This document shows positions 8,476-10,281 of a DNA stretch of 11,011 bases, piece by piece. How positions within the stretch are numbered: the first letter of the stretch is position 1; each line of letters begins with the position of its first letter. This stretch comes from a virus (lineage: Duplodnaviria; Heunggongvirae; Uroviricota; Caudoviricetes). The notes below the pieces were generated by a model that was not told the DNA's origin, did no database searches, and was given only the letters and a program-made list of their open reading frames with translations. Location: the IMG/VR virus record IMGVR_UViG_2740892233_000013. One strand, given 5' to 3'. A program made the translations under genes and the position numbers.

Positions 8476-9623
8476 TTAAGCCCGGAAAGGATTTCTGGTT
8501 TTATGTGCGCAGCGTCAACCTGGTGGGTAAATCTGCTTTTGTGGAAGCCAGTGGACGGGCGAGCAATGATGCTGCGGGCTATCTGGAACTTTTCCGGGAA
8601 AAGATAGGAAAAACGCATCTGGCAGAGGCGCTGTGGGCAGAGATTGACAACAGTCAGCTGAAGGACGAGATGGCGGAAATGCAGACCACCATCACAGAAA
8701 CCCGCAATGAAATCACACAGACGGTCAGTAAAACGCTGGAAGACCAGAGCGCCACCATTCAGCAGATACAGCGCGTGCAGAAGGACACAAATGATGACCT
8801 GGCTGCGCTGTACATGCTGAAGGTTCAAAAAACGAAAGACGGCATTCCCTATGTGGCCGGGATTGGTGCAGGGATTGAGGATACTGATGGCCAGCCACTG
8901 AGCAACATACTGCTGCTGGCTGACCGTATCGCGATGATAAATCCGGAGAGCGGCAACAGCACGCCGTTATTTGTGGCGCAGGGGAATCAGCTGTTCATGA
9001 ACGACGTGTTCCTGAAGCGACTGTTTGCGGTGAGTATCACGTCATCCGGCAACCCCCCGACGTTTTCCCTGACGCCGGAAGGGAAGCTGACAGCCAGGAA
9101 CGCGGATATCAGCGGAGCAATTACCGCGAATACCGGCACGCTCAATAATGTCACCATTAACGAGAACTGTGTCATCAGAGGGAAACTGTCTGCAAACCAG
9201 ATTGAAGGCGACCTGGTGAAGACGGTGGGGAAAGCCTTTCCCCGGAATAACAGTTATGCCAGCGGGACGGTAACCGTCACAGTTTACGATGACCAGGGCT
9301 TCGACCGGCAGATCATCATTCCCCCGGTGCTGTTTCGCGGGACGAAACACCAGAATTTCAACAGCCCGAATCAGCAGTCGTACTGGTATTCCACCTGTAA
9401 GCTGCAGGTGCTGAAGAACGGGGTTGAGATTTTCCATGAACCGGCAACGGATGTCAGCCGGGTGTTCTCATCGGTGATAGATATGCCGGCAGGGCGGGGT
9501 CATGTCACCCTGACGTTTAATGTGTCGTCGGCCGGTGCGAACAACTGGACGCCGACAACGTACATCAGTGATTTACTGGTTGTGGTGATGAAAAAATCCA
9601 CAGCAGGTATCAGTATCAGCTGA
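8476..9623 (+). CDS. J: Host specificity protein J, C-terminal third with stop (receptor-binding domain allele 1)
   Basis: [39 protein letters not shown]...[71 protein letters not shown]...[21 protein letters not shown], stop TGA 9621-9623; matches lambda gpJ C-terminus (..[18 protein letters not shown]..). Confidence 0.9.
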
Positions 9624-9673
9624 ATTTTATAACCCAGAANNNNNNNNNNATTGCAGAAAAGCGAGAGGTAATT

Positions 9674-9703
9674 ATGCGTAAACTTTATGCCGCCATTTTG
9701 TCC
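9674..9703 (+). CDS. lom: Lom/Ail/PagC-family outer membrane protein, first 10 codons (segment ends in N gap)
   Basis: gagaggtaattATG, MRKLYAAILS; same sequence as 10349..10378. Confidence 0.7.
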
Positions 9704-9713
9704 NNNNNNNNNN

Positions 9714-10281
9714 TCCGGCATTTTCCCTGACGCCGGACGGGCGACTGACGGCGAAAAATGCGGATATCAGTGGCAGTGTGAATGCGAACTCAGGGACGCT
9801 CAACAACGTCACGATTAATGAGAACTGTCAGATTAAGGGGAAACTGTCAGCCAACCAGATTGAAGGCGATATTGTCAAAACGGTCAGCAAGTCTTTCCCC
9901 CGCACGAGCACTTATGCCAGTGGCACCATCACGGTAAGAATCAGTGATGATCAGAAGTTTGACCGGCAGGTCATGATACCGCCAGTGTTATTCCGCGGTG
10001 GTAAGCATGAGAATTTCAACAGTAATAACCAACAGTCATACTGGTATTCAACCTGCCGGTTAAGAGTGACCCGCAATGGTCAGGAGATTTTTAATCAGTC
10101 CACGACGGATGTTCAGGGCGTATTTTCCTCAGTTATAGATATGCCTGCCGGACAGGGGACGCTGACACTGACATTCACCGTATCTTCATCAGGAGCGAAT
10201 AACTGGACACCAACAACCAGTATCAGCGATCTGCTGGTTGTGGTGATGAAAAAATCCACAGCAGGTATCAGTATCAGCTGA
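9714..10281 (+). CDS. J: Host specificity protein J, C-terminal fragment with stop (receptor-binding domain allele 2)
   Basis: [101 protein letters not shown]...[21 protein letters not shown], stop TGA 10279-10281; clearly diverged from 8987..9623 at the DNA level. Confidence 0.9.

Follow-up and report, generated by a model that had tools for sequence, protein, structure and literature searches.

Two diverged J C-terminal alleles, set side by side in a draft viral scaffold, are very probably the ends of different prophage genes

The J-lom region

The DNA analysed here, called the window, is a stretch of 11,011 nt from the IMG/VR virus record IMGVR_UViG_2740892233_000013 (Caudoviricetes). Its content is that of genes I, J and lom almost throughout, and the exception is a sodC moron. 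The part of concern consists of three fragments between 8476 and 10382, where the 3' end of J is found twice. The two ends are referred to as allele 1 and allele 2, and their coordinates and those of the associated features are given in Table 1. The lom fragments match the Pfam family PF06316 (Ail_Lom) with E = 1.5e-67.

Table 1. Features of the J-lom region of the window
Feature	Position	Strand	Remarks
Allele 1 fragment: 3' 1,148 nt of J and 16 nt downstream	8476..9639	+	N10-bounded; stop 9621-9623
Allele 1 receptor-binding region, 188 codons and stop	9057..9623	+	Gapless alignment to 9715-10281
13-nt stretch common to both alleles (also 10010-10022); crossover site in the SMN197SH3 hybrid	9352..9364	+	
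64-nt stretch equal to 10234-10297; the fragment terminates here	9576..9639	+	64-nt exact matches at fragment ends
N10 scaffold spacer	9640..9649	.	
54-nt fragment: beginning of lom (ATG at 9674, first codons) with the ribosome-binding site	9650..9703	+	Exact duplicate of 10325-10378
N10 scaffold spacer	9704..9713	.	
Allele 2 fragment: J region 9715-10281 (stop 10279-10281), terminator, lom start	9714..10382	+	
Terminator-like hairpin and T-run in the allele 2 fragment	10299-10324		Terminator scan
lom start in the allele 2 fragment	ATG at 10349	+	
Three overlapping lom fragments, N10 between: 10393-10556, 10567-10642, 10653-11011	10393..11011	+	

The sodC gene (Cu/Zn superoxide dismutase; PF00080, E = 4e-32) is at 1400-1927 on the minus strand of the fragment 1302-2181, directly upstream of one J start (ATG at 2060) and on the opposite strand to it. 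Other fragments carry a tail-assembly gene in place of sodC. The latter has the appearance of a prophage moron that is confined to one variant of the J locus.

Two diverged receptor-binding domains

A preliminary description, made from the sequence alone, placed the two J C-termini at 8987-9623 and 9714-10281. Two diverged copies are indeed present, but the counterpart of the first begins at 9057: 9057-9623 aligns with 9715-10281 without gaps, and 401 of 564 nt (71%) and 145 of 188 amino acids (77%) are identical (blastn E = 4e-90). The divergence claimed for both the DNA and the protein, with substitutions spread through the domain, is thereby borne out by alignment at both levels, as the differences are scattered along its whole length. 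The proportion of synonymous differences is saturated (pS = 0.75) and that of nonsynonymous differences is 0.15 (pN), which argues for old alleles under purifying selection and against a recent duplication.

What are these domains? The proposal that they represent receptor-binding C-termini of gpJ is supported by PF12421 scores of 133.8 bits for allele 1 and 128.4 bits for allele 2 (cut-off 26.2 bits), by alignment of both alleles over their full length to lambda gpJ 945-1131, at about 51-53% identity, and by matches to solved gpJ structures. The latter are PDB 9wca (E = 2e-96 for allele 1 and 2e-118 for allele 2) and 8xcj/8iyk (E about 1e-50, query residues 1-187). The allele 1 fragment displays the domain order PF24489, PF09327, PF12421, in which tail-tip fibre domains come before the receptor-binding one; for allele 2, whose window fragment opens at J nt 2913, the C-terminal placement in a full-length J comes from a complete genome only, that of Escherichia coli FWSEC0002.

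Allele 2 is identical at 184 of 188 residues (97.9%) to the PDB 9wca protein "A8 gpJ 713", the four substitutions being R/K, S/N, T/S and V/A, and it is assigned to the A8 type. Allele 1 has only about 77% amino acid identity to the A8 type and is not assigned to it. An engineered variant, 1A2, was also considered as an identity of allele 1 and rejected, as the VT1-Sakai type is the nearest to 1A2 in a rough tblastn comparison (summed bits of 322, vs 204 for allele 1 and 199 for allele 2) that used machine-read supplementary DNA full of OCR frameshifts.

The window as a set of variant fragments

Are the two copies neighbours on one molecule? They had been described as lying at one locus, but N10 runs at 9640-9649 and 9704-9713 part them and they are on separate fragments. 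The entire window is built in this way: it consists of 28 fragments, 54-1164 nt in length, with a run of exactly 10 N at each of the 27 junctions. Neighbouring fragments overlap in J coordinates, with identities of 72-100% in a fragment-to-fragment comparison, and to the right of each N run the sequence restarts 50-600 nt upstream of the end of the left side, as a different variant. Mapped on two complete prophage loci of strain FWSEC0002 (L001 and L002, described below), the fragments tile the region from -759 to +4078, counted from the J start, so that 10,741 nt of fragments fall on 4,841 nt of reference, with a mean depth of 2.2 and at most 5 variants per position. The order of fragments in the window is an almost perfect sort by their end coordinate on the J reference.

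The fragment ends show a regularity of their own. In eight cases, a maximal exact match between fragments measures exactly 64 nt and stops at a fragment end; ten fragment ends (413, 1025, 3992, 4331, 4686, 5073, 6996, 7395, 7475 and 9639) close in a 64-nt match. At the other side, the start base of many or most fragments is a site that differs from the sibling variant. A k-mer assembler is the probable origin of the 64-nt fragment ends. A strict de Bruijn graph with k = 65 was rejected, however, as 166 65-mers are common to fragments where none are expected. They stem from four internal exact matches of 152, 95, 95 and 80 nt. Internal matches longer than 64 nt imply that the assembler carried out some repeat resolution, or used a different algorithm, and as the strict test failed, no assembler or exact k is named here. 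In Velvet-type scaffolds, spacers measure 10 N or more and nodes are printed from the first distinguishing base; such behaviour fits the fragment pattern, without being proof of its origin.

The depth of variants also says something of the sample. At J coordinates 954-1018, five variant fragments overlap (3483-3992, 4003-4331, 4342-4686, 4697-5073 and 5084-5647), which implies that the sample contained no fewer than four or five copies or variants of J, as is usual for STEC genomes rich in lambdoid prophages. The lom fragments overlap as well (10568-10642 and 10673-10747 are 96% identical), and thus at least two lom variants were present.

The alleles in complete genomes

In E. coli O145:NM FWSEC0002 (NZ_CP031919.1), allele 1 (2.319 Mb) and allele 2 (2.670 Mb) are in two different prophages 350 kb apart. 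Each terminates a gpJ of 1,158-1,159 amino acids and is followed by lom and stf (side tail fibre genes). The allele 1 fragment is about 99.1-99.2% identical to J nt 2330-3494 of prophage L001, and the allele 2 fragment is 99.9% identical to J nt 2913-3580 of prophage L002 and likewise to many STEC genomes. Sequences at least 95% identical are found in 246 complete E. coli records for the allele 1 fragment and in 1,479 for the allele 2 fragment; a single complete E. coli genome can have up to 13-14 places that match J. Both alleles are also present in the phage record LC567834.1, about 48 kb apart, and in a viral contig (L021), a contiguous provirus, allele 1 has the same tail and lom comes next.

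A tandem arrangement was searched for in 5,426 complete E. coli genomes with a junction query that joins the C-terminal half of allele 1 to the N-terminal half of allele 2; the top matches were single domains of about 585 nt, with no tandem among them.

Over the 188 residues, the allele 1 protein is 100% identical to J of phages BP-4795 and Stx2-1717 and of many Stx1a/Stx2a phages, and the allele 2 protein is 100% identical to J of Stx1_120412 and 98.9% identical to that of YYZ-2008. Judged by these identities, both alleles are already known, as J variants of published Stx phages.

Sequence downstream of the stop codons

The final ~45 nt of the two copies were described as identical, together with the flank up to lom. 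The first part stands: 9576-9639 and 10234-10297 are identical over 64 nt, which comprise the last 48 coding nt and 16 nt past the stop codon. The second does not, as the allele 1 fragment ends at this point, 16 nt past its stop, and the terminator found in copy 2 at 10299-10324 is absent after allele 1 in its fragment. The 54-nt fragment starts at the first base past the T-run of the J-lom terminator, which varies in length (T6/T7). What was described as an identical flank is one sequence printed twice, and it says nothing of the surroundings of allele 1. The preliminary description had itself foreseen that the same fragment might be represented twice; this is what is found for the flank, but not for the domain.

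The J-lom terminator hairpin differs among the loci L002, L014, L015, L022 and L021, with 6 or 7 T and an A/G change in the stem (L021 has the CCCATATA variant), and the 54 nt that adjoin it, including the lom start, are conserved in these five loci.

A natural hybrid and the exchange of alleles

In the complete genome of E. coli SMN197SH3 (NZ_CP024056.1, L016 1202-1768), J is a clean single-crossover hybrid of both window alleles. Its 88 first informative sites are of the allele 2 type and the following 75 of the allele 1 type, and the crossover is inside the 13-nt stretch common to both alleles, AGAATTTCAACAG (9352-9364 = 10010-10022). SMN152SH1, a second strain of the same study, gives the same match.

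The tail regions of the two FWSEC0002 prophages are 97-100% identical, except for small patches and one divergent block. This block, which begins at about J nt 2900 and reaches almost to the end of lom, is interrupted by a short identical island at the J stop; as it continues into lom, there is no discrete cassette bounded by the J stop. Allele 1 is paired with a 207-aa or a 199-aa Lom, depending on the genome.

The conserved flanks had been thought to allow a cassette-like exchange between prophages. Exchange is real, as the SMN197SH3 hybrid and the two lom types attest, but the idea that the flanks in the window mark a cassette is not supported: both the duplicated flank and the adjacency of the alleles arise from assembly and scaffolding. 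Mosaicism by homologous recombination at short conserved segments is well known in lambdoid phages, and the exchange of these alleles is ordinary lambdoid mosaicism, with no dedicated cassette system.

Origin of the two copies

We consider it very probable that the "copies" come from the 3' ends of two J genes in different prophages and were juxtaposed by N-spaced scaffolding of a fragmented draft assembly. How might this have come about? The sample would have held several lambda-like prophage tail regions, most likely all in one STEC-like E. coli genome, a single-genome origin that we infer. The near-repeats would have defeated a short-read assembler and left short variant fragments, each ending where it becomes identical to another copy; these fragments would then have been arranged by their position in the J-lom locus, with 10 N as the link. 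The alleles themselves are old lineages under purifying selection, allele 2 of the A8 type (OmpC, according to the work of others) and allele 1 of the BP-4795 / Stx2-1717 type, which prophages swap by homologous recombination at short conserved stretches.

The scaffold could have been formed in the same way from alleles of different cells or strains, i.e. from a mixed culture, a metagenome or a co-assembly. The presence of up to five variants at the same J position is compatible with such a source, but one genome suffices, in view of the number of J-matching places that a complete E. coli genome can contain and the occurrence of both alleles in FWSEC0002. A mixed source appears rather unlikely.

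Could the tandem be real, with a full J followed by a promoterless spare receptor-binding cassette, and recombination at the conserved 3' end bringing about programmed host-range switching? The two copies share a strand and run J-end, lom-start, J-end, lom-start; both the 64-nt identical tail and the 13-nt internal identity are genuine substrates for recombination, on the evidence of the natural hybrid; and N spacers alone are compatible with physical closeness of both fragments. But N10 spacers are present at both junctions, the same overlap pattern recurs at all 27 junctions of the window, and the second copy opens at the boundary of an assembly fragment, in the middle of the gene and in frame. 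Furthermore, both alleles end ordinary full-length J genes in separate prophages, and the top matches in the complete genomes contain no tandem. Alternative C-termini contiguous in one molecule, which a switching locus would have, are not what is seen here, where the junctions are N10 runs in a pile of overlapping fragments. Nor are there inverted repeats with an invertase, or a template repeat with a reverse transcriptase: the number of inverted repeats in 8476-10382 is 0, and the window has no recombinase, invertase or reverse transcriptase gene. Readings as an invertible segment of the Mu G / P1 C kind or as a DGR were rejected, as inverted repeats are absent. A real tandem is thus highly improbable, and its specific form, a promoterless second J cassette right after a complete J and lom start that acts as a reservoir for switching via the 64-nt tail, is barely credible.

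That the N runs are masks on a continuous sequence, i.e. a locus with 27 partial tandem duplications, has in its favour only that masking does exist in some collections, and it is effectively refuted, since the flanks of each N run are colinear with no reference, the right side restarts upstream as a different variant, and the exact 64-nt overlaps at fragment ends are left unexplained.

Receptors and host range

The A8 gpJ variant uses OmpC and not LamB (Brödel et al. 2024; PMC11338833). In lamB-deleted cells, A8 grafted on lambda gpJ at residue 964 gave DNA delivery via the OmpC of both MG1655 and EDL933 (PMC11338833). [quoted passage not shown]

Each J C-terminus described here would similarly act as a receptor-binding Ig-like trimer, its loops entering a porin of the outer membrane and triggering the opening of the tail. 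By analogy with A8 and OmpC, and with lambda and LamB, both alleles would bind an outer-membrane protein receptor and set host range, and it is plausible, as the preliminary description proposed, that alleles 1 and 2 differ in receptor specificity. A literature search revealed no receptor reported for J of the BP-4795 type (allele 1); its receptor may be a porin, probably OmpC with a different spectrum of variants. For this sample, the receptor of either allele is one that we infer from relatives.

The chances are about even that the alleles differ in the OmpC variants or porins used and that the natural hybrid, with an N-terminal half from one allele and a C-terminal half from the other, shows that specificity is modular inside the domain. 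This is far likelier than a tandem spare cassette, and would be of modest interest only, if true.

Significance

The window serves mainly as a warning. In STEC-like genomes, lambdoid prophage genes that exist in several copies collapse and break up when assembled from short reads, and scaffolds joined with N can mimic tandem duplications or "cassettes". The biology itself is established: allelic gpJ receptor-binding domains (LamB or OmpC) are recombined among co-resident prophages and are in use for engineered delivery vectors. A small by-product of the analysis is a documented natural single-crossover hybrid, which could inform the design of chimeric receptor-binding domains or the mapping of specificity determinants.

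Comparison with known systems

The likeness of the window to the invertible segments Mu G and P1 C and to DGRs is superficial and consists of two alternative C-termini of a host-range protein. Here, by contrast, the copies are direct, lack an invertase, reverse transcriptase or inverted repeats, and are physically non-contiguous.

A closer comparison is with the lambda gpJ receptor-binding domain (PF12421; PDB 8XCJ/8XCK/8IYK), which binds LamB. It belongs to the same family as both alleles and, like them, lies at the end of J, but it differs from them at roughly one residue in two and by indels in loop regions, and OmpC, not LamB, is the receptor used by the characterised protein closest to allele 2. 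The porin loop-insertion mechanism is carried over from lambda to the two alleles by homology. The J proteins of Stx phages (BP-4795, Stx2-1717 and Stx1a; Stx1_120412 and YYZ-2008) carry the same alleles, with no notable difference. A8 gpJ (PDB 9WCA/9WCB) is near-identical to allele 2, whereas allele 1 stands at ~77% identity to it.
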